A DNA stretch of 32,000 nt from Acuticoccus yangtzensis (lineage in GTDB: Bacteria > Pseudomonadota > Alphaproteobacteria > Rhizobiales > Amorphaceae), in the NCBI RefSeq assembly GCF_001927245.1, contig NZ_MJUX01000014.1, forward strand, positions 1 to 32,000. The letters are read 5' to 3'. The position numbers and the translations under genes were made by a program. Each line of letters starts with the position of its first letter. Position 1 is the first letter of the stretch. Of the stretch, positions 9,124 through 28,634 are shown one piece after another. The notes below the pieces were generated by a model, which made no database searches, was not told the origin of the DNA, and worked only from the letters and a program-made list of their open reading frames with translations.

Positions 9124-9129
9124 GGGCTC

Positions 9130-10206: not shown

Positions 10207-10224
10207 GAGGGCAGGCTCACGACC

Positions 10225-10512
10225 ATGCCGACGACACGCACACCCGACCACATCACGCTGCCGAAACCCGAGTTCGAGCAGCTCCTCGAAACCGCCGCCG
10301 AAAAGGGCGCGAAGCGCGCGCTCATCGACGTCGGCCTCGAAGGCGAGACCGCAGCAGCCGACGTCCGCGATCTCCGCTCGCTCCTCGATGCGATCAAGGT
10401 CGTCCGCAACACCGCCCTTCAGACCGCGGTGCATGTGATCGTTACCGCGATTCTGCTCCTCATGGTCCTCGGCGCCGCAATCAAGCTGAAGCTGTTCGGC
10501 GACGGCGGCTGA
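10225..10512 (+). CDS. Small membrane protein (95 aa), candidate holin/lysis accessory
   Basis: A soluble charged N-part is followed by a single C-terminal TM (ALQTAVHVIVTAILLLMVLGAAI). It sits directly upstream of the hydrolase gene. Confidence 0.5.
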   Translation: MPTTRTPDHITLPKPEFEQLLETAAEKGAKRALIDVGLEGETAAADVRDLRSLLDAIKVVRNTALQTAVHVIVTAILLLMVLGAAIKLKLFGDGG

Positions 10513-10579
10513 CCGCTCCCACTCTCATCATCGTCCACCGAGCCCGCCTTGTTCGGGCTCTTTTCGTTTGGAGGTTCCC

Positions 10580-11266
10580 ATGACGCCCAAGTGGTATCAG
10601 CTCGCAACCGCCGAGCTGGGCCAGCAGGAGATCCGTGGCGCGAGGCACAATCCGCGGATCGTCAGCTATCAGCAGGCGACCGGCCTTCGCGCCACCGACG
10701 ACGAGACCGCGTGGTGCGGCTCGTTCGTCGCGTGGTGCCTGCGCGAGGCTGGCATTCGCTATGATGTTGCTCGCGCGGCGGCCGCTCGGTCCTGGCTGAG
10801 CTGGGGCCGCAAACTCGACAAGCCGACCATCGGCTGCGTCGTCGTCTTCTGGCGCGGCAAGCGCAACGGCTGGCAGGGCCACGTCGGCTTCTACGCCGGC
10901 CGAGCCAAGAACGGCGACATCCTCGTCCTCGGCGGCAACCAGGGCGACGCCGTCGGCATCCGCCCGTACTCGGCGAGCCAGCTGCTCGGCTATCGCTGGC
11001 CGAGCGATGTCGCGCTGCCGCCGGACATCGAGCCGCTGGCAAAGTCCGGCGTCGTACAGGGCACCAGCATCGCCGTCGCCAGCGGCGGCGCGATCGTCGC
11101 AGAGAACCTTCCGACTTTGGTAACGGAACTCGAGCGGGCCGATCGACATCTGCAGGCGGGCACCATCTTCGGCATCGCCATCGGTGTGTTGATCGTCGCC
11201 GGCGGCGGATACGCCCTGTGGCGGAGGGTGAAGGCGGCTCGGCAGCTCGGCGAGGAGGTCACGTGA
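10580..11266 (+). CDS. TIGR02594-family (CHAP/NlpC-like) peptidoglycan hydrolase with C-terminal TM anchor; putative endolysin
   Basis: ATG 10580 lies 5 nt after GGAGG (10570-10574), so the track start at 10568 is less likely. 'ELGQQEIRGARHNPRIVSY...ETAWCGSFVAWCL...WQGHVGFYAG...LGGNQGD' matches TIGR02594. The C-terminus 'GTIFGIAIGVLIVAGGGYALWRRV' is a TM helix. Confidence 0.82.
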   Translation: MTPKWYQLATAELGQQEIRGARHNPRIVSYQQATGLRATDDETAWCGSFVAWCLREAGIRYDVARAAAARSWLSWGRKLDKPTIGCVVVFWRGKRNGWQGHVGFYAGRAKNGDILVLGGNQGDAVGIRPYSASQLLGYRWPSDVALPPDIEPLAKSGVVQGTSIAVASGGAIVAENLPTLVTELERADRHLQAGTIFGIAIGVLIVAGGGYALWRRVKAARQLGEEVT

Positions 11267-14166: not shown

Positions 14167-15176
14167 TGTCGTTCCCAAGAAGATTGTTCAGCCTGAGCCA
14201 GGGTGTCTGATGGCCGATCGCTGAGTGTGGGCGGGCGGTGTTGTAGGTTTTGAGAAAGGGCTGCTAGCGCGCGTTCTCTCGGCGGATGAGTGATAGGGGC
14301 GGACGTAGGCCCATTCTCTGAGGGACGTCTGAATGAAGCGTTCGGCCTTGCCGTTGGTGCGCGGCGTGTAGGGCCTTGTCCGGATGTGCTTCAGCCCTCG
14401 TTCGTGCAGTATCTTGCGAAAGAAGTGGCTCCGGTAGGCCGATCCGTTGTCGGTCATGACCCGCTCGACGGTCACGCCATGGCGCTTGAAGAAGGCCAGG
14501 GCGCGGCCCAGGAAGGCAATCGCGTCCTCGCGTTTCTCGGAGGCGAGCACCTCGGTGAAGGCCAGGCGCGAGGCGTCGTCGATGGCCACATGGAGCACCT
14601 CCCAGCCGGTGCCGCGCTTGTTCGACTGGCCCCGCCGATCGCCTGTGATGCGATGGCCAATCCCCTTGATCCGCCCGAGCTTTTTGGTGTCCATGTGGAT
14701 CATCTCGCCAGGCTGTTCGCGCTGATAGCGCCGGACCGGCGGAGTTTCATCCAGGGCCTTGAGCTTGCCGAGGCCGAGCCGGCGCAGGACCGCACCGACG
14801 GTCGATCGGGGCATGTTGAGCTGGCGGGCGATGGCCGGCCCCGTCATGCGCTGAAGCCTGAGGCGCTTGATGTCCTGGACGGTTCTCTCGGCGAGTTTAT
14901 GACGGATACGATGCGGCGTGTGGGACCGGTCGGTGAGGGCCGCTTCGCCGCCCTCTTTGAACCTTGCCAGCCATTTGAAGGCGGTTCGCTTGGAGATCCC
15001 CGCGGCGCTTGCCGCATCGGCAACCGGCCAACCCTGGCTTTGCACCCGCTCCACCAGCAGGAGCCGACTGTGTCGGTTGGAACGTGCATTCTTGTGGGTG
15101 TTCATGACCGATCCCCGCTGCCTCCCGAAGAGACAATCAGACCCGGTCCCGGCGAGCAATCATCGTAGCATCCACA
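14167..15176 (-). mobile_element. IS481-family insertion sequence (1010 bp)
   Basis: The element is flanked by 6-bp TCTAGA direct repeats. The ends TGTCGTTCCCAAGAAGATTG... and the reverse complement of the other end, TGTGGATGCTACGATGATTG..., form imperfect IRs (about 16 of 24 nt by eye). A single transposase fills the element. Confidence 0.85.
14188..15105 (-). CDS. IS481-family DDE transposase
   Basis: The start 'MNTHKNARSNRHSRLLLVERV' is typical for the family, which makes ATG 15105 the likely start. The HTH N-terminus and the 'HMDTKKLGRI...VAIDDASR...TDNGSAY...RTRPYTPRTNGKAERF' DDE core are present. Confidence 0.9.
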   Translation of the reverse strand: MNTHKNARSNRHSRLLLVERVQSQGWPVADAASAAGISKRTAFKWLARFKEGGEAALTDRSHTPHRIRHKLAERTVQDIKRLRLQRMTGPAIARQLNMPRSTVGAVLRRLGLGKLKALDETPPVRRYQREQPGEMIHMDTKKLGRIKGIGHRITGDRRGQSNKRGTGWEVLHVAIDDASRLAFTEVLASEKREDAIAFLGRALAFFKRHGVTVERVMTDNGSAYRSHFFRKILHERGLKHIRTRPYTPRTNGKAERFIQTSLREWAYVRPYHSSAERTRASSPFSKPTTPPAHTQRSAIRHPGSG

Positions 15177-15182: not shown

Positions 15183-15611
15183 GGAAGCGCTGACGGCCCT
15201 CCTCCTGATCTTCCTCGGTGGTGCCTTGCCCGCTCTGTGGCCCGCGCTCGACTGGCAGGGTTGCCTGATCGGCCTCGCGCTTCTTCTCGAGATCCGCCCG
15301 CTCGCGGGCTGGGTCGCGCTGTGGCGGTCGCCGCTCGGCGGGCGGGAGCGTGCCGTCGTCGCCTCTTGCGGCGTGCGGGGCATCGGGTCGGTCTATAATC
15401 TCGGCTACGCGTCCGGACGGATTGAGTTCATCAACGCGGCCCAGATCTGGGCGCTGGTGGCGTTCACCATCTTCGCGTCCACACTCGTCCACGGTGCGAC
15501 CGCCCGTCTCATCGTCGACCGGGTCGTCGGCGCCCGCTCGGCGCCTTCCTGATCCCGGGGCACGGGACCGGGGTTCCGGTCCGCTCGACGGTGGCGGGAC
15601 GAAGGGGACCG

Positions 15612-16484
15612 TCAGCGGGCGCTGAGCACGGCGACCTCCACCTCCATCGACGTCTGCGATGCGCCATCGAGGGACACGAAGGTGCCGCTGACAGGGACCG
15701 CCTGCGCAGGCGTGCGGGTCGTCGCCACGCGCACCAGGCTGCGGCTCGCGACGATCTGGTTGGTCGGGTCGAACTCGACCCAGCCGGCCCCCGGTAGGTA
15801 CACGTCCGCCCAGGCGTGGGTCGCGCCACCGCCCGTCAACGTCTCGGCGTCGGTGGCCGGGTCGTAGAGATAACCGGTGACGAACCGCGCCGCATAGCCG
15901 AGGGATCGCGCGGCCTCCATGAAGAGGAAGGCGAAATCCCTGCACGTGCCGCTTCCCTTGGCGATGGTCTCAGCCGGGGACTGCACCCCCATCTCCTCCC
16001 TGCGCCGGTAGACGAAGCTGCGGTGGACGGCCGTGGACAGGGCCTCCAGCACCTCGGCGCTTCCGTGCGGCAGTTCCGGCAGAACAGCCGCCACCCATGC
16101 CCTCACTGCCTCCGCGTCGCGCGGCCGGTCGATCGCGACGAGGGCGGCGAGGTCGAACGCCTCGTCGGATTCGTACCGTGGTGGGTAGGCGCCGGCGCGT
16201 CGGCCGATGCGCGGCAGCGGATCGTCGAGGGCGTATCGCTGCAACCGCAGCTCGCTGGCGATCACGAGCTCCTGCGCCGGCTCGTGGAACGTCAGCCGCG
16301 CCACCGAGTTACCAAATGTGTCGTAGGCCCATCCGACGTCCGCCGGCGGGGACACGGTCAGGCTCGATCCCAAGATCCTCATGTCGTGTCCGTCACGGGG
16401 CCTGAGCATCAGGTCGTGCGGTCCGAATTGCACAGGCCGGTCGTATGAGTACACCGTCTTGTGGGAGATCATCAGCGCACTCAC
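15612..16484 (-). CDS. Transglutaminase-like family protein (Bact_transglu_N + transglutaminase core)
   Basis: 'HKTVYSYDRPVQFGPHDLMLRPR' is N-domain-like. The core reads 'GSGTCRDFAFLFMEAARSLGYAARFVTGYLY...THAWADVYLPGAGWVEFDPTN' (Cys/His/Asp). ATG 16472 is an alternative start. Confidence 0.85.
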   Translation of the reverse strand: MSALMISHKTVYSYDRPVQFGPHDLMLRPRDGHDMRILGSSLTVSPPADVGWAYDTFGNSVARLTFHEPAQELVIASELRLQRYALDDPLPRIGRRAGAYPPRYESDEAFDLAALVAIDRPRDAEAVRAWVAAVLPELPHGSAEVLEALSTAVHRSFVYRRREEMGVQSPAETIAKGSGTCRDFAFLFMEAARSLGYAARFVTGYLYDPATDAETLTGGGATHAWADVYLPGAGWVEFDPTNQIVASRSLVRVATTRTPAQAVPVSGTFVSLDGASQTSMEVEVAVLSAR

Positions 16485-16611
16485 GAATGTTTTTCCACGT
16501 GGCCCGTCCTTTATTTTGCAAATATTGACACTATATCTGTAATGCTTGCCGATAAGGCAATGTCCAGACCATCGAATTCATCGTCTCGTTTGCGGGCGTG
16601 GAAAGGTAATA

Positions 16612-17490
16612 GTGTTTATTCGTTTCGGATTCGATATTGCGTTGAACTGCAAGACACCGACGACGCTCATTCTCGGCCTGTCGCCACACTCGACCTATTC
16701 CGGTCGCATCATCGGGTCCGACCGTCTCACCGTTGAGCCCGAGCTTGCGATGGACGATATCCTCGATCCGTTCGGCAACCGGCTCATACGGCTGAGGGCT
16801 CCCGCCGGCCGGCTCGCACTGAACGCGGACTGCGTGGTTGAGGTCGAGGGCGAGCCCGACCCGTTCGACTGGAACGCTCAGCAGCGGGATGTCGCGGACC
16901 TTCCGCCCGAAACGCTGCCCTTCTTGATGGCGAGCCGCTACTGCGAGTCTGACGTGCTCCGCGAGGACGCGTGGCGCCTGTTCGGCGGTACGCCGATGGG
17001 CTGGGCGCGCGTGCAGGCGATCTCCAACTTCGTGCACAACCACCTGACGTTCGGCTATGGTTTCGGCCGCCCGACGAAGACGGCGGCGGACGCGTTCAAG
17101 GAGCGCACCGGCGTCTGCCGGGACTTCGCGCATCTCATGATCGCGCTCTGCCGTGCCATGAGCATCCCGGCCCGCTACGCGAGCGGCTACCTCGGCGACA
17201 TCGGCGTTCCGCCGTCAGGCCCCGGCGACTTCAGCGCCTGGACCGAGGTCTATCTCGGCGATCGCTGGTACACCTTCGACGCGCGCCACAACATCCCCCG
17301 CATCGGGCGCATCCTGATGGTGCGCGGCAGGGACGCGGCGGACGGCGCCATGATGACCACGTTCGGCGCCTACGATCTCGAGCTGTTCAAGGTGTGGACC
17401 GACGAGGTCGAGGGCCGCGGTGACGACGATCTAAAGGAGCTGCTCCGCCGGCAGCCGGTAGGCGAAGCGCTAACACTCGCACCGGTCTGA
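16612..17490 (+). CDS. Transglutaminase-like family protein, divergent from 15612..16484
   Basis: The likely start is GTG 16612 after GAAAGG, giving 'MFIRFGFDIALNC'. The core reads 'GVCRDFAHLMIALCRAMSIPARYASGYLGD...DFSAWTEVYLGDRWYTFDARHN'. Confidence 0.8.
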   Translation: MFIRFGFDIALNCKTPTTLILGLSPHSTYSGRIIGSDRLTVEPELAMDDILDPFGNRLIRLRAPAGRLALNADCVVEVEGEPDPFDWNAQQRDVADLPPETLPFLMASRYCESDVLREDAWRLFGGTPMGWARVQAISNFVHNHLTFGYGFGRPTKTAADAFKERTGVCRDFAHLMIALCRAMSIPARYASGYLGDIGVPPSGPGDFSAWTEVYLGDRWYTFDARHNIPRIGRILMVRGRDAADGAMMTTFGAYDLELFKVWTDEVEGRGDDDLKELLRRQPVGEALTLAPV

Positions 17491-17782
17491 AAGCGCGCTT
17501 GCCGAGTACCGGAAGGGCGCGTTTCGGCGAGTGGCAGAATCTGCGCCCCGCGCAAGTCCGTCGCTCAATGCGGATTTCGAGACCCGCGCAGCGGACTTGG
17601 GCGGTATTTGAAAGCCAAGGCGCAGGCTATATTTGAAAAGTAAAGAGAAAACTTTGAAGGCTGCCCCCGAAAGCCTGCCTTCATCACGGCGGTCGGGTGC
17701 TGGACGGTATCACAGTGCGATCGGTTGACCGGTCGGCCGTCCGGACGGACGCCGCGGCCTGATCGCGTTTGGAGGACGATGC

Positions 17783-17938
17783 GTGGAAACGACCGACAGC
17801 CAACCTGAACAAAGCTTCGAAACGCCGAAGGCAGACAACAACAACATGAAAAGGCAGGCCGAGCCGAAAGGTCCGCCCGCGCCTCAACCCCCGGTGCCCG
17901 CCGGCGGTCACGTCAGGCCGCTCGGTGAACCATCGTGA
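17783..17938 (+). CDS. Candidate 51-aa upstream ORF (below the ORF-track cutoff), coupled to the 97-aa gene
   Basis: GGAGGA (17771-17776) lies 6 nt before GTG 17783. My translation is METTDSQPEQSFETPKADNNNMKRQAEPKGPPAPQPPVPAGGHVRPLGEPS. Its TGA 17936-17938 overlaps GTG 17935 (GTGA). The sequence is low complexity, so coding status is uncertain. Confidence 0.3.
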   Translation: METTDSQPEQSFETPKADNNNMKRQAEPKGPPAPQPPVPAGGHVRPLGEPS

Positions 17939-18228
17939 GTACCGCACGGGATCTGGATGCGCCGGAGTTTTTCGAGTCGCAAAACTACGCGACCTCGGCC
18001 AACCTCTTCGTCCGCCACGCCGGGTCGAGACGAGGGGGTCTTCGCAGCTACCGGTTCGATACGGCGGCCGATGCGATCGCCTGCGCTCTGACCAACTTTG
18101 CCAGTCGGCGGCCGAGCGACGTGGTGATGACCGTGGAAGACAAGCGGTTCAATCTCGACGCTCTGCGCGCGATCGAACGCCGGGATGGGGCGCCCAGCGG
18201 CCCCAGTGCGGGCATCGCTTCCGCCTGA
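17935..18228 (+). CDS. Uncharacterised 97-aa protein, paralog of 28631..28924
   Basis: It shares the core 'LFV...RGGL..(Y)RF.TAA.AI..A..N..S.R..D.VM.V..KRFN' with the second 97-aa ORF, roughly 40% identity by eye. Both have the same length and the same position upstream of the desaturase. Confidence 0.65.
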   Translation: MSTARDLDAPEFFESQNYATSANLFVRHAGSRRGGLRSYRFDTAADAIACALTNFASRRPSDVVMTVEDKRFNLDALRAIERRDGAPSGPSAGIASA

Positions 18229-18286
18229 TCAGCCGGTGATGCGGGCCATTCCTCCGGGGCGGTCGCGCCTGGACACCGGCGACGCC

Positions 18287-19474
18287 ATGAACGGCTCAGC
18301 AACACATCCGCGATGGGCGGAGGAGTACCGCGGTTTGACCCACCTAACTGTCGACGAACCAAGGCACCCCGACACGGGTGCGCAATCGTCGATCGCGCCT
18401 GCCGAGCTCGGACGGGAAATGCGGGCGTACACCGTTCCGGACCGCAAGCGCAGCCTCTTCGAGCTGACCGCCTCCGCCGTACCGTTCGTGGCTCTCTGGC
18501 TCGCCATGTGGCTCGCCCTCACCCAAGTCGGCTACTGGCTAGTCCTCCTTCTGGCGGTGCCGGCCGCAGGGTTCCTCGTCCGTCTCTTCATGATCCAGCA
18601 CGACTGCGGTCACGGCTCGGTCTTCGGCGCGCGCCGCGCGGACGACTGGCTCGGCCGCGCGCTTGGCGTGCTGACCCTCACTCCCTACGATCACTGGCGC
18701 CACACCCATGCCATGCATCATGCGGGTTCCGGACATCTCGGAAAGCGCGGCATCGGCGACGTCGCCACGCTTACCGTTGCCGAGTATCGCGCCCGCGGTC
18801 CGTGGGGGCGGTTCGCCTATCGCGCATATCGCCACCCTCTGGTGCTGTTCGGCCTCGGTCCGGCGCTCGTCTTCATCCTTCAACATCGGCTCCCGGTCGG
18901 CTTCATGCGCAGCGGCGCAATCCACTGGATGAGCACGATGGGCACCAACGCGGCGATTGCCGTGTTCGCAGCGCTGATGATGTGGGCCATCGGCGTCATG
19001 CCTTTCCTCGCCATTCACCTGCCGATCGTCGTGCTCGGATCTGCGATCGGCGTCTGGCTCTTCTACGTCCAGCATCAGTTCGAGGAGACCTCCTGGGACG
19101 GGGCGGATCAGTGGAAGCACCCCGAGGCGGCGCTCCACGGCAGCTCGCATTACACGTTGCCCGGCCCGCTTCGCTGGATCACCGCCAACATCGGGATCCA
19201 CCACGTTCACCACCTTTCGAGCCGCATTCCGCATTACCGCCTCGCCGATGTGCTGCGAGACTACCCGGCGCTCGCGGAGTTCAACCGGCTGACGCTGCGC
19301 GAAAGCCTCCGATGCGTCCGCATGACTCTGTGGGACGAGGAGACCCGCCGGCTCGTGCCGTTCTCGGCTGCGCGGACCGCCGGGCCGGGCGATGACGGGC
19401 GGACTCTGCCGTCCGCCGCCGCACTTGCGGATACAGTCGACGTATCCGGCGCGCGGACCGGTGTCGCCGTATGA
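18287..19474 (+). CDS. Membrane fatty-acid desaturase (three His boxes)
   Basis: Three His boxes are present: HDCGH ('MIQHDCGHGS'), 'WRHTHAMHH' and 'HHVHH' ('IGIHHVHHLSSRIPHYRL'), with TM segments between them. The start is uncertain (ATG 18287, 18239 or 18185 are all in frame). Confidence 0.85.
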   Translation: MNGSATHPRWAEEYRGLTHLTVDEPRHPDTGAQSSIAPAELGREMRAYTVPDRKRSLFELTASAVPFVALWLAMWLALTQVGYWLVLLLAVPAAGFLVRLFMIQHDCGHGSVFGARRADDWLGRALGVLTLTPYDHWRHTHAMHHAGSGHLGKRGIGDVATLTVAEYRARGPWGRFAYRAYRHPLVLFGLGPALVFILQHRLPVGFMRSGAIHWMSTMGTNAAIAVFAALMMWAIGVMPFLAIHLPIVVLGSAIGVWLFYVQHQFEETSWDGADQWKHPEAALHGSSHYTLPGPLRWITANIGIHHVHHLSSRIPHYRLADVLRDYPALAEFNRLTLRESLRCVRMTLWDEETRRLVPFSAARTAGPGDDGRTLPSAAALADTVDVSGARTGVAV

Positions 19475-20259
19475 CCATGATCGCACGGTCGGTCGGGCGA
19501 CTGGCGCCCTTCCTTGTCGTCCTGATCCTCTCCGGCGTGCCGCTTCCGGCGGCGGCGCAAGGGGGCGACGGCGATGTCCCGGCGAATGCGACCGCCTCCC
19601 GATACGGTACCGGGTGGACGTGCGATCCCGGCTACCGCGACATCGACGGCGTTTGCAGTGCGGTGCGCGTCCCGCCGAACGCATACGGCACCGGTCGCTC
19701 GTACGGCTCGGGGTGGGAGTGTCTGCGCGGCTTCGCCGCCACACACGAGAATGGCGACTGCGTGGCCGTCACGGTCCCGGACAACGCTTATTTGAACGAA
19801 CGCGGCCGGTCCTGGGAATGCGAACGGGGGTTCGCGCGTGAAGGCGACGGTTGCGTCGCCGTCGCCGTGCCCGACAACGCCCATCTGAGCGGAAACGCCT
19901 ACGACCGCGACTGGCGTTGCAACCGAGGCTTCCGGGAGGAAGGGGCGAGCTGCGCGAGGATCACCGTGCCGGAGAATGGCTATCTTACCGACACCACCTA
20001 TGGTCTCGGCTGGCTCTGCGAGCGCGGCTACCGGGCGACGCAGGACGCATGTGTGCCGGTTGAGGTGCCCGACAACGCCTATCTCGACGCAGCCGAGCGT
20101 GGTCCCGGTTGGACTTGCGAGCGCGGCTACGTCGAGCGCGAGCACGGCTGCGCTCTGATCGATATCCCGGACAATGCACATCTCGACTACAGCGGCCACC
20201 GGTGGACTTGTGACGAGCCCTACCGAAGGCGCGGCGGCGGGTGCGCTCCATCGGACTGA
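19471..20259 (+). CDS. Exported cysteine-rich tandem-repeat protein (262 aa)
   Basis: ATG 19471 overlaps the desaturase TGA (ATGA). The signal peptide is 'MTMIARSVGRLAPFLVVLILSGVPLPAAA/QG'. It contains 7-8 repeats of ~32 aa with two Cys each. Confidence 0.8.
   Translation: MTMIARSVGRLAPFLVVLILSGVPLPAAAQGGDGDVPANATASRYGTGWTCDPGYRDIDGVCSAVRVPPNAYGTGRSYGSGWECLRGFAATHENGDCVAVTVPDNAYLNERGRSWECERGFAREGDGCVAVAVPDNAHLSGNAYDRDWRCNRGFREEGASCARITVPENGYLTDTTYGLGWLCERGYRATQDACVPVEVPDNAYLDAAERGPGWTCERGYVEREHGCALIDIPDNAHLDYSGHRWTCDEPYRRRGGGCAPSD
19603..20256 (+). repeat. Coding tandem repeat, ~32 aa unit, consensus [YG]-x-x-W-x-C-[ED]-R-G-[FY]-x(5,6)-C-[VA]-x-[VI]-x-V-P-[DE]-N-A-[YH]-L
   Basis: Units read directly from the translation include YGTGWTCDPGYRDIDGVCSAVRVPPNAY, YGSGWECLRGF..., GRSWECERGFAREGDGCVAVAVPDNAHL, YDRDWRCNRGF..., YGLGWLCERGY..., RGPGWTCERGY... 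and GHRWTCDEPY... Confidence 0.85.
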
Positions 20260-20581
20260 TCGGGTCCAGCGTCGGTGGGCCGACGTCGGAACGCTCGCTC
20301 GAGGGCGGGTCCGCGGCGCACGGGAGGGGTTCCATCCCGACCGGAGGAATGGGCGGGGACCGTGGTCGCGCTCACGCCCAGCTCTCCGCTCTACGCCAGG
20401 CGTTCTCGTGACCGGCCGGATCGGAAGCCCTTGCAATCGTGTTGGTCGAAACGCGGAGGACGCGCGCGAAGGCTCGCGCACAACGCTGCGAGGCTTCCCG
20501 ACATGACCGCGTCGCCAAACCCTGAATTGGTCGTGCGCCACCAAGCCGAGCTGGGCCACGATCGGCATATTCATCATCCTG

Positions 20582-21643
20582 GTGTTCGCCGCCATCACGC
20601 TTGCCCGCAGCTTCCTGATGCCGCTGACGCTCGCGGTGCTCCTCTTCGTCGCCTTCACGCCGGTCTGTCGCGCGATGGGGCGTCTGGGCGTTCCGCAGGC
20701 GGTGGCCGCAACGCTGGTCACCCTTGCGCTGCTCGTCGGCGTTCTGGTTGCCATGGTCGTGCTCGCCGTCCCGCTCACAACCGCAGTGGAGGATGCGCCT
20801 AAGATATTCGCAGAGCTCCAGGTCAAGTTCCCGGCGCTGCAGGGGCCGATCAGCGAAATCCGGGATGCGATAGACAGAATCAGCGCTCTATCCGTCGGCG
20901 GCGCGCAACCTTTGACCGTTGTGACCGCCGCACCAGCCAACGGCTCCGGAATGCTGACGAGCATCGCCCTGACGACACCGGCGGTGTTCGCCCAGCTGAT
21001 CTTTACCCTCGTCCTGCTGTTCTTCGCCCTCGCCTCGCGCGAGCTTCTTTACAGGCGCACAGTACCGGGCTTCGCGGCGGCCGCCGAACGGAACGAGGTG
21101 CTGTCAGCGATGCATACGATCGAGAGCAGCCTCGGGCATTATCTGGGCGCGATCACGCTCATTAATGCGGGTCTGGGCGTGGCGGTCGGCTTTGCGATGT
21201 GGGCGTGGGGGATGCCGGCGGCGATCCTGTTCGGGGTCGGCGCGTTCGCCTTCAACTCCATCCCCTACGTCGGCGCCGTCGCGGGCGTGCTCGTCGCCAC
21301 GCTCGTCGCCCTCGTCACCATGGACGGATTCGTCGTTCCAATTCTCGTCGGCTCGACGTACCTCGCGTTGACGTCAGCCGAAGGACAGCTCGTCACGCCG
21401 TATTTCGTGTCTCAGAGGCTGAGGCTGAACACCGTCATCGTCTTCATCGCTGTCGCGCTCTTCACGTGGCTCTGGTCTGTCGTCGGCATGATCGTGGCGG
21501 TGCCGCTCCTCGTGGTGCTCAATGTCATCTGCCAGTTCGTACCGGGTCTGGCCGGACTTGGCTCGTTTTTGTCGGGCGGCGAGGCTGACGAGATGGAGGT
21601 CCAGACCCTTCCCGAACGAAGCGCTGAAAGGATGAAGTCGTGA
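20582..21643 (+). CDS. AI-2E family (PerM/UPF0118) transporter; true start probably upstream and frame-broken
   Basis: It is multi-TM, with 'FNSIPYVGAVAGVL' and 'VVGMIVAVPLLVVLNV' typical of the family. The same frame is open back to 20507 and encodes the TM-like 'WATIGIFIILVFAAITLA' without a canonical start. The nearest ATG (20503) is in another frame. Confidence 0.75.
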   Translation: MFAAITLARSFLMPLTLAVLLFVAFTPVCRAMGRLGVPQAVAATLVTLALLVGVLVAMVVLAVPLTTAVEDAPKIFAELQVKFPALQGPISEIRDAIDRISALSVGGAQPLTVVTAAPANGSGMLTSIALTTPAVFAQLIFTLVLLFFALASRELLYRRTVPGFAAAAERNEVLSAMHTIESSLGHYLGAITLINAGLGVAVGFAMWAWGMPAAILFGVGAFAFNSIPYVGAVAGVLVATLVALVTMDGFVVPILVGSTYLALTSAEGQLVTPYFVSQRLRLNTVIVFIAVALFTWLWSVVGMIVAVPLLVVLNVICQFVPGLAGLGSFLSGGEADEMEVQTLPERSAERMKS

Positions 21644-22017: not shown

Positions 22018-23176
22018 TACCAGCGCGCCTACCCAATGACTCGGTAAACGGTTTGTCGTCCCAGCTCTGACTCCCTTGTCGGATCGGATGATTCGCGGGG
22101 CGCAGATGCGACGAGGATTGGTCATCAGCGACGCACTTTCGGCGGGCGAGCTGCGGCGGCTTGCCTTCCGCGAGCGTTCGGTTCGAACTGCGAAGCGCAT
22201 GCTGGCGATTGCCAATGCGCTGAGCGGTATGACGCGTGCCGATGCGGCGGCAGCGGCGGGGATGGAACGCCAGGCGCTTCGCGATGCTGTCGTGCGATAC
22301 AACGCCGAAGGTCTCGCGGGTCTCGTTGATCGCCCGGGCCCCGGACGTCGCCCGGCCCTCACGGAAGGCGAGCTGGCGCTTCTGGCGGAGCGGATCTTCA
22401 AGGGGCCCGATCCTGAGGTCGACGGCACCTCGAGGTGGACGCTGCCCGATCTCGCCGCGTTCATCGAGGAGCGGTTCGGCAAGACGATCACGCCCCAAAG
22501 CCTGTCGCGTATCCTGCGACGCGAGGGCTTCTCGCACCAGAAGACGCGGCCCTTTCACCCGAAGGCGAAGGCCAGGGCTGCATTCGAAAAAAGGGCTCCG
22601 CGGCGCGCTGAACGACGTCGCCGGGGCGCATCCGCACAAGCGCGTCGTCCTTTATTTCCAGGACGAGATGCGGGTCGGTCAGAAAGGCCGGCTGTGCCAT
22701 CGCTGGTGGCTGAAGGGCGAACGCGCTCCGGGGCGTCAGGATCGGCGGTTCTCCTTCACATATCTCTTCGGCGCAGCGCGGGCCGACGGCGAGGCCGCGT
22801 TCGCGCTGGTGCTTCCCGAGGTCGGGACGCAAGCCATGCAGCTCTTCCTCGACGGTTTCGCCAAAACTCTCCCTGCCGACGAACACGCCGTCATGGTGCT
22901 CGACGGCGCCGGCTGGCACGGCGCCAAAGCGCTGGCGGTTCCGTCCAACATCACCCTCGTGCCGCTGCCGCCGTACTCGCCGCAGCTGAACCCGATGGAG
23001 CGCGTCTGGCTGTACCTGCGCGAACGCTACCTCAGCCTGCGCCTTCTTCCGGGCACCGAGGCCATCCTCGACGCCTGCTGCGCGGCCTGGAACGCCCTCC
23101 TCACCGAGACCGGCCGCCTCCGATCCCTCTGCTACCAGCCGTGGCTTCAACGGATCATTGAATAAGCGCGGCGGTA
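22018..23176 (+). mobile_element. IS630-family insertion sequence (~1.15 kb) with flanking TA
   Basis: The left end ATACCAGCGCGCCTACCCAATGAC and the reverse complement of the right end, ATACCGCCGCGCTTATTCAATGAT, align as imperfect IRs. TA lies at 22018-22019 and 23175-23176, consistent with TA duplication. The exact termini are uncertain by 1-3 nt. Confidence 0.75.
22088..23165 (+). CDS. IS630-family transposase split over two frames at an A6 run (orfA 22088-~22592, orfB ~22593-23165)
   Basis: The N-part 'AKRMLAIANALSGMTRADAAAAAGMERQALRDAVVRYNAEGLAGLVDRPGPGRRP' is the HTH region. The C-part 'VVLYFQDEMRVGQKG...MVLDGAGWH...LPPYSPQLNPMERVW' is the DDE core. The frames change at CGAAAAAAGGG (22585-22595), and a +1 shift is needed. 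Confidence 0.8.
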
Positions 23177-23753
23177 TAAGTGCCGGCCTCCGATCCCACC
23201 GCCCAAGCGTGTCCCATCCCCCCTCGACCAGCCTCATCTCGGCGACGACGACACCATCCAATCAGACCGTGCGTTTCGGCGAGGCGGTTCATGTCCGGGC
23301 CGGCGGCGAAGTCGTCCGGATCCTGGTTGCAGCCATGCAACATCACGATAAGGCCGTTCGGCCCGGCGGGCATCGTCGCAGGGACATAGAGGCGATAGTC
23401 GCGGCTTCCCCCGGGTCCGTCGAAGGTTCTGGTCTGGAACCGGGGATCTGCGGGCTTCTGCAGATCAGCAGGAATTCGACCTCGAGAGGGCTGGGCACTC
23501 CGAGACTCGAGCGACCGATCGCGGCGCCGAGCGGGAAAGTGACCCGCTCCGACGGCAGCGGATCGATGGCAGGCGCCCGGACCGGTTCGATCCGCTGCGC
23601 AATGGAACCTCGATGCCGTCGAACGTCGTGCACAAGCGCGGCGGCGGCCTCTGAAGCGGGCGCATTCGTCTCGCGCTCACCGAGCGCGGCGCGTATGATC
23701 GCCATCGCTTCGCCCGGCTGACCGCCTCGCACGAGGGCGGTCGCCCGGCGCAT
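23177..23753 (-). pseudogene. PHB-depolymerase-family esterase, N-terminal remnant (frameshifted, truncated at the IS630)
   Basis: 'MRRATALVRGGQPGEAMAIIRAALG...' appears in one frame and 'GSRDYRLYVPATMPAGPNGLIVMLHGCNQDPDDFAAGPDMNRLAETHGLI' in another. The catalytic Ser region is absent, and nothing continues on the far side of the IS. Confidence 0.6.
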
Positions 23754-23879
23754 TGCCGGGGCAAAATCTTCGCTCGACTGGATTCCTTCGCCGGCGGTCG
23801 CTGGCAGTGTAAGTCGCTTGTCAGGCGATGCGATCCGCTATGGCCTTCTTTACATCCCGGCTTGCCTGGAGGCGTAAGC

Positions 23880-24679
23880 CTTCGGAGAGGGGCTGGGCGC
23901 ATGCGCGACGTCTGTTCTTCGAGCTCGCCGACATCGCCGCTCGGGCTCGGCGCGACGGCCGAGTGCCGGTGGATCTCGCTGGTCGCGCTCCAGGCGGTCC
24001 GGCGTATCGACGCGCTGTTCGACATCGAGCGCACCATCAACGGCCTCGACGCGGCAGAGCGACTTCGGGTGCGACAGGAGATAAGCGCGCCGCTCGTGCA
24101 AGATCTCGAGGTCTGGCTGCGCGACGAACGCGTTCGCCTGTCCCAATCGGCCGCCGTCGCCAAGCCGATGGATTACATGCTCAAGCGCTGGGACCGGTTC
24201 ACCGGCTTCCTCGAAGACGGCCGGATCTGCCTCACGAACAACGCGGCCGAGCGGGCCCTTCGAGGCTATGCCCTCGGCCGCAAGGCGTGGCTCTTCGCCG
24301 GCTCCGAGCGCGGCTCCGACCGGGCCGCCGCCATGGCGACGCTGATCGGGGCGGCCAAGCTCAACGACGTCGACCCGCAGGCCTGGCTCGCCGATGTCCT
24401 CGTGCGCATCGCCGCCATGCCGCAGGGCCGGCTCCCCGAACTACTGCCGTGGAACTGGAAAACGCCGGTCTCCTCCAGCGAAACCGCTTGAGCCATAGGC
24501 GCGATCCGCCGTGCCTGCGGCCCTCACCGGACGTGTGTGGACGCCCCCTCGGATGCAAGCGTTTTGTTGGGATCGAAGGACATGTGGCCAGGTGCGGTCG
24601 TGTGTCCGGCCTCGAAGGTGCGGCCTTCATCGCCGCGGGCCCGTATGGAGATAGGCGAGATCGGGACCATTTCGCTTAC
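23880..24679 (+). mobile_element. IS66-family remnant: 3' part of the transposase (TnpC, frameshifted) plus the right terminal repeat
   Basis: 'GWAHARRLFFELADIA' lies in frame 2. Frame 0, ending at 24491, reads 'ALQAVRRIDALFDIERTINGL...KPMDYMLKRWDRFTGFLEDGRICLTNNAAERALRGYALGRKAWLFAGSERGSDRAAAMATLIGAAKLNDVDPQAWLADVL'. The sequence ...TTCGCTTAC ends at 24679, which reads as GTAAGCG on the reverse complement, as expected for IS66-type ends starting GTAA. Confidence 0.72.
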
Positions 24680-24796
24680 CCGCGCTCAATGGCGCTGCAT
24701 CCGGAATGCTGGTTCGCCCGATCCGGTCTCGTGACCGTTTGCCCTTACGTTTCTTTCGCCCCGCTCACATCCTCGACGTCAACCCGGCGGCTCGGC

Positions 24797-25825
24797 CTAT
24801 TGCGCCGCCAGCGCCGGATCCCGGTACTCTCCGCCGTTTCGCATCAGCGCCCAGGCGACACGCGCCATGCGATTGGCAAGCGCGACTGCAACCAGCATGC
24901 GCGGCTTGCGGTCGATCATCCTCGCCAGCCAAGATCCCTCGGGCGCTCCCTTTCGAGCCGCCCATCGCACGACGGCGACGGCACCTATGATCAGGAGACG
25001 GCGAATGTTGCGTTGCCCCATCTTCGACGTCTTCCCCAGCCGCCCCTTGCCGCCGCTTGAATGCTGACGCGGCGTAAGGCCGACCCAGGCGGCGAAGTCG
25101 CGCCCCTTGGTGAAGGTCTGCGCCGGCGGGGCGAACGTGGTGAGCGCCGCGGCGGTGATTGGCCCCACCCCCGGGATCGTCATCAGCCGCCGCGCGGTAT
25201 CGTCGGCGCTCGCTCGCACGCGCAACTCCTTGTCGAGCGCCTCTATCTGGCTCCCCAGCATCTCGATCTGATCCACCAGCATTCGCCCCAAGGCTGTCGC
25301 CGCTTCCGGCAAGCCACTTTCGTCACCTTCGACGAACGCCGCCAGTCGGCCGACGTGCGTGATGCCCGTGGGCACGACGAGGTCGAACTCGGCGAGATGG
25401 GCGCGTAGCGCGTTGATCGTTTGCGTGCGCTGGCGCACCAGGAGATCACGGGTTCGGTACGCCATCGCTGCCGCCTGCTGGGCCTCCGACTTCGGCTCCA
25501 CGAACCGCATCGTTGGCCGCGACGCCGCCTCGGCGATCGCTTCGGCATCGGCCGCATCATTTTTCTGCCGCTTCACGAACGGCTTGACGTACGCTGGCGC
25601 GATCAACTTCACCTCGTGGCCCAAGCTTCGGATTGCTCGGGCCCAGTGATGCGCCCCGGCGCAGGCCTCCATCGCGACCGTGCATGGCGCTTGATCCGCA
25701 AAGAACTTCAACAGTTGCCCGCGCGACAGCTTCCGTCGAAAAACGACTGACCCATCCGGCGCAGCGCCGTGGGCCTGGATTACGTTCTTGGCCAGATCCA
25801 GGCCGATGATGCTAACCTCTTTCAC
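24797..25825 (-). CDS. IS110-family (DEDD) transposase/recombinase, copy A
   Basis: 'KEVSIIGLDLAKNVIQAHG...AMEACAGAHHWAR...QKNDAADAEAIAEAA...TIPGVGPITAAAL...FAAWVGLTPRQHSSGGK' are family motifs. The likely start is GTG 25825, 6 nt after AGGAGG. The track start ATG 25840 is the alternative. Confidence 0.9.
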   Translation of the reverse strand: MKEVSIIGLDLAKNVIQAHGAAPDGSVVFRRKLSRGQLLKFFADQAPCTVAMEACAGAHHWARAIRSLGHEVKLIAPAYVKPFVKRQKNDAADAEAIAEAASRPTMRFVEPKSEAQQAAAMAYRTRDLLVRQRTQTINALRAHLAEFDLVVPTGITHVGRLAAFVEGDESGLPEAATALGRMLVDQIEMLGSQIEALDKELRVRASADDTARRLMTIPGVGPITAAALTTFAPPAQTFTKGRDFAAWVGLTPRQHSSGGKGRLGKTSKMGQRNIRRLLIIGAVAVVRWAARKGAPEGSWLARMIDRKPRMLVAVALANRMARVAWALMRNGGEYRDPALAAQ

Positions 25826-26038
25826 GGACGCCCTCCTCATAGCGGTGCTTCAACACCCGCTACCTTGGCACTTCGATGCCGTCGGGGGGCGTCCACCCCA
25901 TCGCTTACCTGGAGGCTGCCGAGCACGGTGATGGATCCGATGGTCGCCGCAGCGAGCGCCGGCATGACGTCAGGCGCGATCCGCGCAAGACCGACGAGCT
26001 TGATGTGGAGCCCTTCACGAGCCGCTCGCGCCGCTTCC

Positions 26039-26049
26039 GGGGGGGGGGG
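26039..26049. repeat. G11 homopolymer in the spacer between the two IS110-family genes
   Basis: The run was counted directly: ...ccgcttccGGGGGGGGGGGcaactg. It lies 17 nt downstream of the copy-B stop codon. Confidence 0.9.
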
Positions 26050-26065
26050 CAACTGTGTAGTCGGC

Positions 26066-26989
26066 TCACGCTGCGAGCGGCGTTCCGCTGCGCAGCATGG
26101 CGTTGATGATGACGAAGAGTTGGCGTGCGACGGCGATGAGGATCGTCTTTGGCGCCTTCCCTTTCTCGCGCATTCGATCGCGCATGGCAGTGAGGCTCGG
26201 GATGCGTCGCGATGCCGTGAGGGCTGCGATGTAGAGCGCCTCACGGACCTTGCGACGACCGCCCCAGATGCGGCGAGCTCCGCGCCAAGTGCCGCTCTCC
26301 CGGGCATGTGGGGCGAGGCCGGCGAGAGAGGCGATGCGTCGCCGGTCGAGGGTGCCGAGCTCGGGAATCTCGCCGAGAAGGGTGGCGAGGACCGTTGGAC
26401 CGATGCCGGGTACGGCGCGCAGAAGCCGGGCTTGAGAAGAGAGCGTCAGGTCCTCCTCGATGAGGCGCGCGATGACTCGATCGAGTTCGGCGATCTGGCG
26501 GGTGAGGAGGTCGATCATCGCCTCGATCTGGAAGGCGATCTCGTCCTGCCCGGCGTTGTGGCGGCGCGTCTTCTCGGCTTTACGGATATCGACCAACTGT
26601 CTGCGACGCCTGAGGAAATCGGAAAGACGGCTGCGCGCCGGGCTACTTGGGCGGGTGATGGGAAGGTCCAGGACCGAACCCATATGCGCCAGCACCCGGG
26701 CATCGACGCGATCGGTCTTGGCGAGGACGCCGGTGGCTCTGGCGAACTCGCGGGCCTGACGTGGAGCGGTTCGCGAGAAGGCGAGGCCTCGTTCGGCGAG
26801 GGCGGCGATGAGAGGGCCGTCGCAGCCGCTGGTCGCCTCGAATACGACGAGGACGTCCGGCTCGAGCGAAAGGGCCCAAGCGGCGATCGCCTCCGGGTCG
26901 TTGGCGACCTGCGTCGAGGTGGCGTTCGGCAGGGTGTGGAGGTCGATGACGGCGCGCGAGAGGTCGCAGCCGATGACGGTGCGTGGCAT
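26066..26989 (-). CDS. IS110-family (DEDD) transposase/recombinase, copy B (distant from copy A)
   Basis: 'MPRTVIGCDLSRAVIDLH...VFEATSGCDGPL...KTDRVDARVLA...AVPGIGPTVLATLL...LAGLAPHARESGTWRG' are family motifs. The likely start is ATG 26989. Confidence 0.9.
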   Translation of the reverse strand: MPRTVIGCDLSRAVIDLHTLPNATSTQVANDPEAIAAWALSLEPDVLVVFEATSGCDGPLIAALAERGLAFSRTAPRQAREFARATGVLAKTDRVDARVLAHMGSVLDLPITRPSSPARSRLSDFLRRRRQLVDIRKAEKTRRHNAGQDEIAFQIEAMIDLLTRQIAELDRVIARLIEEDLTLSSQARLLRAVPGIGPTVLATLLGEIPELGTLDRRRIASLAGLAPHARESGTWRGARRIWGGRRKVREALYIAALTASRRIPSLTAMRDRMREKGKAPKTILIAVARQLFVIINAMLRSGTPLAA

Positions 26990-27080
26990 GGTCGGGGTCC
27001 TGTCCATGTCGTGCGGGATCGGGGTCCCAAGCAACTGTTCAGGGTTCAAGAGCGACGCGGAAGGGACCCATGCTCCCTAA

Positions 27081-27775
27081 CGGGTTCGAGGGCCCTCGGG
27101 GGGACGGGCTCCCTTCCGCAACTCCGAAGCTATCACCTCGCTGACAGACAGAGGGGGGCGATGGTCCGATCTGCCGGTACGCTACGGTAAGGTCTCGACC
27201 ATTAAGAGCCTTTACTACCGCTGGGCCAGATTGGCGTGCTCGACCGGCTTCTCGATGCGTTCGCGGCGGAGGCCGACACGGAGTGGGACGCCGTAGACTC
27301 CACGACTATCGAGGCCCATCCCCAAGCGGCGGGCACGTCGCATAAAAAGGGCGGGCATGAAGCTGGCGGCCTGGGCCAGTCCCGCGGCGGGCATATTTCG
27401 AAGTTGCACGTCGCTGCCGATGCGCTCGAGCTGCCGCTCAGGATTATCGTCTCGCCGGGGCACCGCGGCGATATGCTGTTCGGGGGTGACCTGATTGCGG
27501 GGCTTACAACACAGGCCGTCCCTGCCGATCGGGCTTACGACGCCAACCACTTCCGCCTGGCGTTCGCCTACGAGGGCGCGGAGGCGGTCATCCCCTCACG
27601 GCCCGACCGGCCAAGCCTGCCGTGCGACGTCCGGCTCCTATCGAAGCGCAATCTGGTCGAACGGCTCATCAATCGCCAGAAGCAGTTCCGCCGGGTCGCG
27701 ACGCGCTAAGACCGTCTCGCCGCGAACTATCGCGGCTTCGTGCTGGTTGCCGCGATCTGCCTCTGGCTGGCTTAA
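27081..27775 (+). pseudogene. IS5-family (IS427/IS1031-like) transposase remnant: lacks its first ~25-30 codons, one frame break, one nonsense codon
   Basis: My translation of 27081-27230 gives '...GGRAPFRNSEAITSLTDRGGRWSDLPVRYGKVSTIKSLYYRWAR'. The frame changes near 27228 into 'GVLDRLLDAF...DSTTIEAHPQAAGTSHKKGG...GQSRGGHISKLH...ADRAYDAN...RNLVERLINRQKQFRRVATR'. TAA at 27707-27709 sits where Tyr is expected, followed by 'DRLAANYRGFVLVAAICLWLA' to 27775. Confidence 0.75.
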
Positions 27776-27824
27776 CGGTAAAAATGCGACCAATGCCTGA
27801 TTGATCTTATCTCGGGATCGATTG

Positions 27825-27850
27825 AAAAGGGAGCCTCGAGGCTCCCTTTT
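27825..27850. terminator. Bidirectional rho-independent terminator (cspA 3' end)
   Basis: AAAA-GGGAGCCTCGAGGCTCCC-TTTT: a perfect 18-nt GC-rich palindrome flanked by an A-run and a T-run. It lies 4 nt past the cspA stop on the minus strand. Confidence 0.75.
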
Positions 27851-27854
27851 CGGA

Positions 27855-28064
27855 TCAGTCGACGAGCTGCAGATTCGCGGCCGACTCCCGTCCGTCACGG
27901 CCCCTTTCGATATCGAACGTCACCTTCTGACCTTCGCCGACGCTGCTGAGGCCAGCTCGCTCGACAGCGGAGATATGCAGGAAGATGTCTCGGGAACCGG
28001 ACTCCGGCTGGATGAAGCCGAAGCCCTTCTGAGAATTGAACCACTTCACGGTGCCGTTGGCCAT
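27855..28064 (-). CDS. cspA: Cold-shock protein CspA family (69 aa)
   Basis: 'MANGTVKWFNSQKGFGFIQPESGSRDIFLHISAV' carries the RNP1/RNP2 motifs. GGAGG lies 6 nt upstream of ATG 28064. The longer track ORF (to 28178) is rejected. Confidence 0.95.
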   Translation of the reverse strand: MANGTVKWFNSQKGFGFIQPESGSRDIFLHISAVERAGLSSVGEGQKVTFDIERGRDGRESAANLQLVD

Positions 28065-28463
28065 CGTGGCCTCCATCGGAAAGTGCTGCCCGCGACATGC
28101 GGCAGCCTGGCTGCAGTCAGAGCAAAAATCGGGACTGAAGCCGGATGGAGACAGTTTTCGACTATGGTAACCTAGCAATCTTTCATATACGGTGGGCGGT
28201 CGATGATCGCAAGATGCGTTTTATTTGAGGGAAGGACCGGAAAACTGCGCTGAATCTCGTTCAGCGCCCGCCCGTATGCCATAAAAGTGCTCCTATTAAT
28301 AGACGGCATTGAGTTCCGCTTTTCAGGCCCTACATATGAGTGTGCACGACTAGCTATCGAAGGCGTGCCACTTTTCTCGAAATCGTCCTGATCGTCCGCG
28401 AGGCTGACCGTTCGGCCGCGCGCTCAGAGGCTGCGTCCGAAGCGGCAGAACAAAGGAAGTCGT

Positions 28464-28634
28464 ATGGCCAAGGGCCAGAAGCGAACAGATGCGACCCCAA
28501 AATCCAGCAATGACGTCGCCAGGAAAGCTAAGAAGGCGGCGGGCCCGAAGTATCTTCGAGATGCCATGACCACCAGCCCCAACGCCACCGCGCTGACGGC
28601 GAAGGGCAAGGCACCACGCGGGAGCAAGGCATGA
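28464..28634 (+). CDS. Candidate 56-aa Lys-rich upstream ORF (below the ORF-track cutoff), coupled to the 97-aa paralog
   Basis: AAGGAAG lies 4 nt before ATG 28464. My translation is MAKGQKRTDATPKSSNDVARKAKKAAGPKYLRDAMTTSPNATALTAKGKAPRGSKA. Its TGA 28632-28634 overlaps ATG 28631 (ATGA). Confidence 0.35.
   Translation: MAKGQKRTDATPKSSNDVARKAKKAAGPKYLRDAMTTSPNATALTAKGKAPRGSKA

Follow-up and report, generated by a model that had tools for sequence, protein, structure and literature searches.

A small-protein gene pair linked to cold-shock and desaturase genes in Acuticoccus yangtzensis and other Alphaproteobacteria

Des-type desaturases introduce cis double bonds into existing membrane lipids and thereby fluidise membranes, and proteins of the CspA family are RNA chaperones. 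To our knowledge, cold acclimation in Alphaproteobacteria is poorly mapped beyond counts of csp genes. The closest described enzymes to the one considered here are the Des desaturases of Bacillus (B. subtilis des, B. cereus DesA). A comparable membrane-bound enzyme, with three histidine boxes and a full-length match to a DesA model, is encoded in the 32,000-nucleotide (nt) stretch of Acuticoccus yangtzensis contig NZ_MJUX01000014.1 analysed here (the window), but it is preceded in its predicted operon by two small genes that Bacillus lacks, a tiny open reading frame (ORF) and a gene for a protein of 97 amino acids (aa). Our results show a strong linkage between csp genes and the family of the 97-aa protein; several lineages also link this family to one desaturase subfamily and transglutaminase-like genes. 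The sequence comparisons suggest that a recurrent, mobile alphaproteobacterial neighbourhood (centred on Hyphomicrobiales) appears here in a lineage-specific form and most likely serves acclimation to cold or related stress, a reading to which we give about an even chance.

Copy 1 of the cassette, at 17783-20259 of the whole stretch, consists of four intact same-strand ORFs in the ORF list, which lie, with their overlaps at 17935 and 19471, where a preliminary description of this DNA had placed them:

17783-17938, + strand: tiny ORF 1, 51 aa, GTG start
17935-18228, + strand: 97-aa gene, copy 1, no Pfam or NCBIfam match, unannotated alpha/beta family
18239-19474, + strand: Des-type membrane acyl-lipid desaturase, intact, start at ATG 18239 or ATG 18287
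19471-20259, + strand: exported protein with seven two-cysteine (2-Cys) repeats, copy 1, 262 aa, ATG overlapping the desaturase stop
17772-17777, + strand: Shine-Dalgarno sequence GGAGGA, read from the sequence, 5 nt before the GTG of tiny ORF 1

The junction between tiny ORF 1 and the 97-aa gene, read directly in the sequence, is GTGA at 17935-17938, and the ORF ends give ATGA at 19471-19474 between the desaturase and the Cys-repeat gene. The gap between the 97-aa gene and the desaturase is 10 nt if the latter starts at ATG 18239 and 58 nt if it starts at ATG 18287; a start at the mechanical first ATG of this ORF, 18185, would overlap the 97-aa gene. The Shine-Dalgarno region of tiny ORF 1 is kept as TGGAGGACGATGCGTGGAAA in L003 (L-numbers denote the other contigs and genomes compared; L005 is Acuticoccus kalidii), whereas only a purine-rich stretch precedes the 97-aa start. 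Given the overlap of the tiny ORF's stop codon with the 97-aa start, the 97-aa protein is probably translated in coupling with the tiny ORF. The short gap and the second stop/start overlap suggest that the desaturase and Cys-repeat genes lie on the same transcript. The EcfG-type general-stress promoter (GGAAC-N15-18-CGTT) had no match in the window or in 69 upstream regions of family genes.

The close clade comprised nine loci, namely the two of the window and seven further distinct ones (the short contig L002, with the same pair as L001, is additional). A tiny ORF lay upstream of the 97-aa gene in 9/9 of these loci, with its TGA overlapping an ATG or GTG, and the two genes are thus the invariant core of the cassette. 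The tiny peptides share the pattern MAKGQKR...K-rich...AGPKY(L/M)R and, copy 1 excepted, have isoelectric points (pI) of 10.4-10.9. The tiny ORF also showed elevated in-frame G+C at third codon positions (GC3), and the ratio of nonsynonymous to synonymous substitution rates (dN/dS) ranged from 0.22 to 0.48 in the clade. Tiny ORF 1 is 48% identical to its counterpart in L003 (dN/dS 0.48), and tiny ORF 2 is 58% identical to that of A. kalidii. Since the peptide is conserved and basic, it may be a functional micro-protein and not simply a coupling device.

The other genes of the neighbourhood are less constant. The desaturase follows the pair in six of the nine loci (both window copies, L003, L005, L014, and L015), so that the order tiny ORF, 97-aa gene, desaturase occurs in four loci outside the window. 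A CspA-type gene lies divergently upstream in 5/9 (copy 2, L001, L004, L005, and L015), and transglutaminase-like genes are present in 5/9, including the two of the window. Among the desaturase-bearing loci that could be assessed, four of five carry the Cys-repeat gene; it is whole in L015 and in the two window copies, reduced to a remnant in A. kalidii, and missing from L003. The Cys-repeat gene is a lineage-specific add-on to the cassette.

The 97-aa protein had no match in Pfam, NCBIfam, or the sequences of PDB, and a profile of its family had none among PDB sequences either. A word-indexed search returned only three close homologues, and a profile search of 1.8 billion representatives returned 385 at E<=1e-3. 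A profile built from 60 members then recovered at least 3957 clusters, all 'hypothetical' or unnamed and without Pfam domains; the preliminary description had left open whether homologues exist beyond the window pair, and there are thousands. A genome scan with the family alignment gave only 3 loci, and a more diverse alignment was unsuited to a locus scan. The comparisons indicate that the protein belongs to a large, unannotated alphaproteobacterial family of 80-100 aa. Both window proteins align with the family consensus ..AELF..R..L.YRRF.TAAEAIRFA..E......V.D.RF. The conserved columns in 60 sequences are R33, R40, F41, A44, A47, V67, and R71, and the invariant or near-invariant ones are A, R, F, and V only. 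The same alignment contains no conserved Cys or His. As had been noted earlier from the window proteins, this makes the 97-aa protein no obvious electron donor; without Cys/His ligands and without matches in Pfam, NCBIfam, or PDB sequences, it is not a classical one, and on present evidence a role as ferredoxin, flavodoxin, or cytochrome b5 is excluded. The AlphaFold2 (AF2) model (predicted local distance difference test, pLDDT, 75) has the order beta-beta-alpha-beta-beta-alpha. Three suspected relationships were rejected. The family is not akin to DUF1488, a frequent neighbour (hhalign probability 0.1%), nor, on comparison, to the approximately 115-aa partner of the Cys-repeat family in Rhodobacterales, and profile matches to the giant repetitive proteins P0130 and P0132 were judged spurious, as these are Calx-beta/LapA repeats.

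The csp gene of the window and its leader, which the preliminary description had missed, stand divergently upstream of copy 2:

27855-28064, - strand: CspA-type cold-shock gene, 69 aa, by homology to PF00313 genes
28065-28180, - strand: conserved 5' leader of csp, with a hairpin at 28086-28105, CTGCCCGCGACATGCGGCAG

The gene codes for a cold-shock domain (CSD) protein with the ribonucleoprotein (RNP) motif RNP1 (KGFGFI) and an RNP2-like motif, 80-90% identical to PF00313 genes in L001, L004, L005, and L015. Its leader of about 115 nt is almost invariant across the five loci, and the hairpin motif occurs once in the window. At gathering thresholds Rfam gave no match in the window; the cspA thermoregulator (RF01766), whose model includes coding sequence, matched 27821-28122 with 39 bits (E 2.8e-7) against a gathering score of 78. 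The leader may be an alphaproteobacterial element that Rfam does not capture.

In addition, the linkage to csp extends to the wider family. Two Bradyrhizobium-like members on seven contigs (L007-L013) are each followed by a csp gene. Across 80 metagenomic, Bradyrhizobium-like loci with 238 kb of flank in total, a csp gene was present in 31, and it lay within 1.3 kb downstream in 22 of the 50 loci with at least 700 bp of downstream DNA. A nearby desaturase was found in none of the 80. Rhizobial genomes carry only 8-16 csp genes (PMC12197054), so chance proximity to one would be about 1-2%. Metagenome-assembled contigs of about 115-522 kb (L007-L011) show the linkage too. As csp genes accompany many of these family members and desaturases none of them (31/80 vs 0/80), the 97-aa protein is unlikely to be a dedicated desaturase subunit. 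The Bradyrhizobium-like relatives also have a conserved small ORF upstream, but a different one, of 62-64 aa (KFKVGQSV...YRIKS...ERVAKESQL) and without a Pfam match; it was seen at L007 4680-4874, L010 4793-4981, and in 31/68 metagenomic loci. A small ORF upstream of the family gene is thus a recurring feature, though a non-homologous one between clades.

Most annotated relatives of the 97-aa family are on plasmids or chromids. Since tblastn of the window protein against plasmids found nothing, a Bradyrhizobium-like member served as the query, and 16 plasmid or chromid contexts were obtained from Rhizobium, Agrobacterium, Sinorhizobium, Ciceribacter, Allorhizobium, Devosia, Pelagibacterium, and Methylocystis. 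Within 5 kb of the family gene, a csp gene was present in 12/16, a desaturase 52-63% identical to that of the window in 9/16, transglutaminase-like genes in 5/16, and a Cys-repeat homologue in 1/16. At least five gene orders were seen, that of the window included. The others were as follows:

R. etli p42f: family gene, csp, DUF6481, desaturase
A. tumefaciens pAt: family gene, desaturase, transglutaminase, csp
A. pusense and Sinorhizobium B11: DUF4167, desaturase ... csp, small ORF, family gene, transglutaminase
Allorhizobium: family gene, two transglutaminase genes ... desaturase

The persistence of linkage through such rearrangement argues for selection on proximity. A. kalidii, three metagenomic contigs, and plasmids of Agrobacterium, Rhizobium, Sinorhizobium, Ciceribacter, and Allorhizobium all pair the 97-aa family with the same desaturase subfamily. 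The earlier view that the adjacency is more than chance thus holds, since the arrangement recurs in unrelated contigs and genomes. The accompanying proposal of a functional unit stands as far as the non-chance linkage is concerned; the four genes, however, are not the conserved unit, which is reduced to the tiny ORF and the 97-aa gene.

A side observation concerns the desaturase subfamily itself. Directly before the Des-type desaturase of Sinorhizobium sp. B11 p2 and A. pusense pR76 stands a 46-aa ORF, annotated DUF4167, that adjoins or overlaps the desaturase start:

L104 121-261 and L105 1553-1693: DUF4167 46-aa ORF, the second case in which a tiny ORF is coupled to a desaturase of this subfamily

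The window desaturase matches PF00487 (E 3.6e-31, 109.3 bits against a cutoff of 29.7), and its translation contains the three His boxes HDCGH, HTHAMHH, and HHVHH. The NCBIfam Delta5 DesA model (NF052548) was matched over its full length (E 7e-103) with 344 bits, which is below the 500-bit equivalog cutoff, so the position of the double bond is not assignable. Plasmids contained no DNA near-identical to the window, and only desaturase matches of about 70%.

Transglutaminase-like genes, also absent from the preliminary description, are the third recurrent neighbour. Two of them precede copy 1:

15612-16484, - strand: transglutaminase-like gene (Bact_transglu_N and Transglut_core; Pfam E 1.2e-24 and 7.5e-21)
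16546-17490, + strand: second transglutaminase-like gene, directly upstream of copy 1 (PF01841, E 2.2e-21)

The same divergent pair occurs in L004, L014, and L015, and orthologues of the 16546-17490 gene in L003, L004, L014, and L015 are 60-84% identical. Genes of the transglutaminase family adjoin the family gene on Agrobacterium and Allorhizobium plasmids as well. On Devosia, Pelagibacterium, and Allorhizobium plasmids (L108, L110, L115), the family gene is flanked by PAS or HisKA kinases with response regulators, and a dedicated signalling input to the neighbourhood is possible. AI-2E genes are found near the family gene on Devosia and Allorhizobium plasmids. Additional plasmid neighbours were GroEL, BON, DUF1488, NhaA, cyclopropane-fatty-acid synthase, and PAS kinases. 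NhaA antiporter genes were likewise observed near family or Cys-repeat genes in Methylocystis, Pelagibacterium, and L098.

The preliminary description had also reported a second copy of the cassette downstream in the same gene order. This copy, at 28464-30159, is real, and its proteins are 43-46% identical to those of copy 1, but its desaturase is an internally deleted remnant:

28464-28634, + strand: tiny ORF 2, 56 aa, pI 10.9, MAKGQKR...KKAAGPKYLR, TGA overlapping the ATG of the 97-aa gene (ATGA)
28631-28924, + strand: 97-aa gene, copy 2, by homology to copy 1
29070-29368, + strand: desaturase pseudogene, by tblastn of the copy 1 desaturase against the window; ORF 29114-29368
29365-30159, + strand: exported 2-Cys repeat protein, copy 2, 264 aa

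Between the copies, the 97-aa proteins are 43% identical (E 4e-22) and the Cys-repeat proteins 46% over 254 aa (E 4e-77). In the pseudogene, residues ~84-105 (29070-29141) are followed by residues 331-378 (29138-29287); the approximately 225 residues between them are gone, with the first two His boxes deleted and the third changed to HHVRQ. The stop of the remnant still overlaps the start of the Cys-repeat gene (29365/29368). The copy 2 97-aa protein is 63% identical to that of A. kalidii and 61% to that of L004, and the closest relative of the copy 1 protein is in L003 (76%). Because each copy is nearer to these relatives than the two are to each other, the copies are old paralogues or separate acquisitions and do not stem from a recent duplication. 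The intact genes of copy 2 are maintained by purifying selection, as their dN/dS against orthologues is 0.16-0.25 (97-aa gene 0.16, Cys-repeat gene 0.20, tiny ORF 0.25). Copy 2 is a decaying second version of the cassette, in which the desaturase is dead and the remaining genes are kept by selection. The G+C content at 28001-29000 is 56.5%, compared with 63-71% elsewhere in the window, and the GC3 of the copy 2 97-aa gene is 0.56; these values fit a foreign origin or relaxed codon adaptation.

Several other features, identified by Pfam (and by the ORF list for the IS5-like element), surround the two copies, including insertion sequences (IS):

14188-15159, strand not stated: IS481, upstream of copy 1
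20582-21643, + strand: AI-2E family transporter, downstream of copy 1 (PF01594, E 3.4e-39)
22076-27709, no strand: IS cluster between the copies (IS630-like, IS66 fragment, two IS110, IS5-like)
22076-23161, strand not stated: IS630-like helix-turn-helix protein
23862-24491, strand not stated: IS66 fragment
24797-25840 and 26066-27049, - strand: two IS110 transposases
27236-27709, strand not stated: IS5-like element
30263-31696, + strand: PAS-PAS-HisKA_2 histidine kinase, downstream of copy 2

Both copies sit in a plastic, probably mobile region. L003 has the same AI-2E neighbour downstream as copy 1. The 108-aa ORF at 15226-15552, next to IS481, is probably a truncated gene, as its match to a Na+/H+ exchanger is confined to the C-terminal end (PF00999 positions 290-373). 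The first third of the window (645-11266) contains large same-strand ORFs of 725, 208, 294, 1319, 358, and 232 aa.

Taken together, the recurrent members of the neighbourhood are a CspA-type protein, a Bacillus-Des-like membrane phospholipid desaturase, transglutaminase-like proteins, and the 80-100-aa alpha/beta protein. In the form found in the window's clade, the 97-aa gene is preceded by the Lys-rich tiny ORF with its strong ribosome-binding site, and the two are probably coupled in translation. With the help of O2 and a general ferredoxin or flavodoxin, the desaturase would insert cis double bonds into membrane lipids that are already in place. By analogy with Bacillus Des and the CspA family, it would fluidise the membrane while Csp would chaperone RNA. 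The product of the last gene would be an exported rod of seven one-disulfide beta-hairpin modules. The 97-aa family is found beside csp genes more often than beside desaturase genes, and its protein most likely acts on the Csp side, for instance through binding to RNA, to the ribosome, or to a regulator. Going further, the 80-100-aa family, with the basic tiny peptide in this clade, might be an unrecognised and widespread alphaproteobacterial cold-shock component that acts with CspA on RNA or ribosomes, was repeatedly wired to a desaturase, and is inherited as one mobile module; we put this forward only tentatively.

A number of points weigh against acclimation to cold or related stress as the role of the neighbourhood. 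We infer cold induction solely from the identity of the neighbours, and for some alphaproteobacterial Csp paralogues the signal is stationary phase and not cold. A scan of 17300-20800 for sigma-70 promoters and terminators gave nothing usable. All 80 metagenomic loci share 73-89% identity with a single query. The plasmid contexts are phylogenetically clustered in Rhizobiaceae, so that their counts overstate independence. The GroEL, BON, DUF1488, NhaA, cyclopropane-fatty-acid synthase, and PAS-kinase neighbours suit a general stress island equally well. The fold of the 97-aa protein had no informative structural match in the PDB (best ERH-like, E 0.07), and because the family pI is spread (median 8.1, quartiles 6.1-9.7), charge gives no indication of nucleic-acid binding.

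Other explanations of the linkage were also considered. In one of them, the 97-aa protein and its tiny partner would be a dedicated desaturase accessory such as an assembly factor, a regulatory subunit, or an electron-donor adaptor, and the four genes would form one lipid-remodelling machine, in line with the functional unit of the preliminary description. The 97-aa gene does stand directly before the desaturase, with anything from an overlap to a 151-nt gap, in the window, L003, L005, and L015; the two are 47 nt apart on A. tumefaciens pAt, and a desaturase is near the family gene in more than half of the plasmid contexts (9/16). However, none of the 80 Bradyrhizobium-like loci has a desaturase nearby, nor do L001, L004, L006, and the Devosia, Methylocystis, and Pelagibacterium contexts, and a Nitrobacter plasmid carries the same desaturase subfamily without the family gene. 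Moreover, the 97-aa gene of copy 2 has stayed intact (dN/dS 0.16) beside a dead desaturase, and the family lacks redox-ligand residues. A dedicated accessory role is therefore distinctly unlikely. The tiny ORF and the 97-aa gene might instead be a small regulatory pair for the adjacent csp, desaturase, and stress genes, with the 97-aa protein binding nucleic acid or the tiny ORF acting as a translation-sensing leader. Their position at the 5' end of the operon, divergent from csp, would suit such a role, as would the strictly conserved stop/start coupling, the family-conserved Arg/Phe positions (R33, R40, F41, R71, F72), and the very basic tiny peptides (pI 10.4-10.9). Profile searches, however, found no helix-turn-helix or other known DNA- or RNA-binding domain, other clades have a non-homologous upstream small ORF or none, and purifying selection on the tiny-peptide sequence is atypical of a pure leader, and we consider this explanation unlikely.

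It is also conceivable that the genes share no function and are unrelated accessory cargo co-travelling on plasmids and IS-rich islands, with the linkage a legacy of descent from a single mobile island. In the window, six IS elements surround the copies; the replicons of most annotated relatives are plasmids or chromids, and the neighbourhoods contain varied stress-type genes. Nevertheless, the linkage has outlasted at least five gene orders and orientations and a divergence of the proteins to about 30-40% identity, the stop/start overlaps indicate co-translation and not just proximity, and the csp linkage recurs on the metagenome-assembled contigs of about 115-522 kb (L007-L011). Common descent of mere cargo thus seems rather improbable to us, and acclimation to cold or related stress remains the reading that we prefer.

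The searched literature described no csp link to the 97-aa family or to a Des-type desaturase, and neither this neighbourhood nor DUF6481 was covered in it. Both the unannotated family and the linkage thus appear undescribed there. Those components whose type is known are ordinary. Several thousand 'hypothetical' small proteins without an entry in Pfam, NCBIfam, or PDB are tightly linked to csp and, in several lineages, also to Des-type desaturases. If this linkage reflects function, it would name new players in the cold or stress response and would show membrane-fluidity and RNA-chaperone functions moving jointly on plasmids; if the genes are functionally unrelated, the finding shrinks to an ordinary stress-cargo island. 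Alphaproteobacteria include rhizobial inoculants for cold soils, and the locus offers a concrete, testable handle on cold acclimation. Additionally, the conserved, coupled basic micro-peptide is a tractable micro-protein case.

The exported Cys-repeat protein has a history partly of its own. It contains seven repeats of about 35 aa with two invariant Cys each (14 Cys in total), and in copy 1 it begins with a signal-peptide-like segment ending AAA/QG. The AF2 model (pLDDT 87) is an all-beta hairpin array. The family has 345 homologues, many from Rhodobacterales, and is predicted to be a bacterial periplasmic or exported one; the copy 2 protein is 53% identical to its L015 orthologue. The profile searches that had been suggested for the two proteins gave only EGF-type matches at or below threshold for the repeat protein and no Pfam or NCBIfam match for the 97-aa protein. 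The EGF_MSP1_1 (PF12946) score was 26.9 for copy 1 against a cutoff of 27.0, 14.5 for copy 2, and 30.1 for the L015 orthologue. Elsewhere, what precedes the Cys-repeat gene is neither a 97-aa family member nor a desaturase but a conserved membrane-anchored protein of about 115 aa (MTFPEWTKPG...GFSWGGW...MVPVCL):

L096 4658-5011, L100 4601-4954, and L098 4143-4487: ~115-aa partner gene of the Cys-repeat family

In Rhodobacterales, this gene is directly upstream of the repeat gene, overlapping its start in L096, and DUF1611 and Ala_racemase_N genes come after the pair. On a gammaproteobacterial contig, a 156-aa gene stands between the two; here the Cys-repeat gene has two transglutaminase-like genes next to it and a csp gene at a distance of 4 kb. 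On Rhizobium sophoriradicis pCC511_3, a Cys-repeat homologue (41%; L107 3463-4236, - strand) stands divergently beside a 97-aa family member, the only such adjacency outside the close clade of the window.

Compared with known systems, the modelled Cys-repeat protein resembles tandem Cys-rich EGF/TNFR arrays (Pfam EGF_MSP1_1, cEGF) in being a disulfide-stapled string of beta-hairpins, with weak matches to NELL EGF repeats, Pfs25/28, and TNFR1. However, an EGF domain has six Cys forming three disulfides, whereas each repeat here has two Cys, and the TM-scores to EGF/TNFR structures are low (0.1-0.23). The csp gene is similar to CspA-family genes with long structured 5' leaders in its KGFGFI motif and its hairpin-containing leader of about 115 nt; the Rfam cspA match here is weak and falls below the gathering threshold. 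The 4-nt overlap of the tiny ORF with the 97-aa gene, kept in 9/9 loci, is like that of coupled upstream small ORFs with ATGA/GTGA junctions in bacterial operons, but the peptide here is itself conserved in sequence (dN/dS 0.22-0.48) and strongly basic. Bacillus Des is cold-induced under the control of DesK/DesR, whereas no DesK/DesR pair is near either window copy and the only nearby kinase is of the PAS-HisKA_2 type. Consistent with the Bacillus enzymes, the csp neighbours of the window desaturase point to its use at low temperature.

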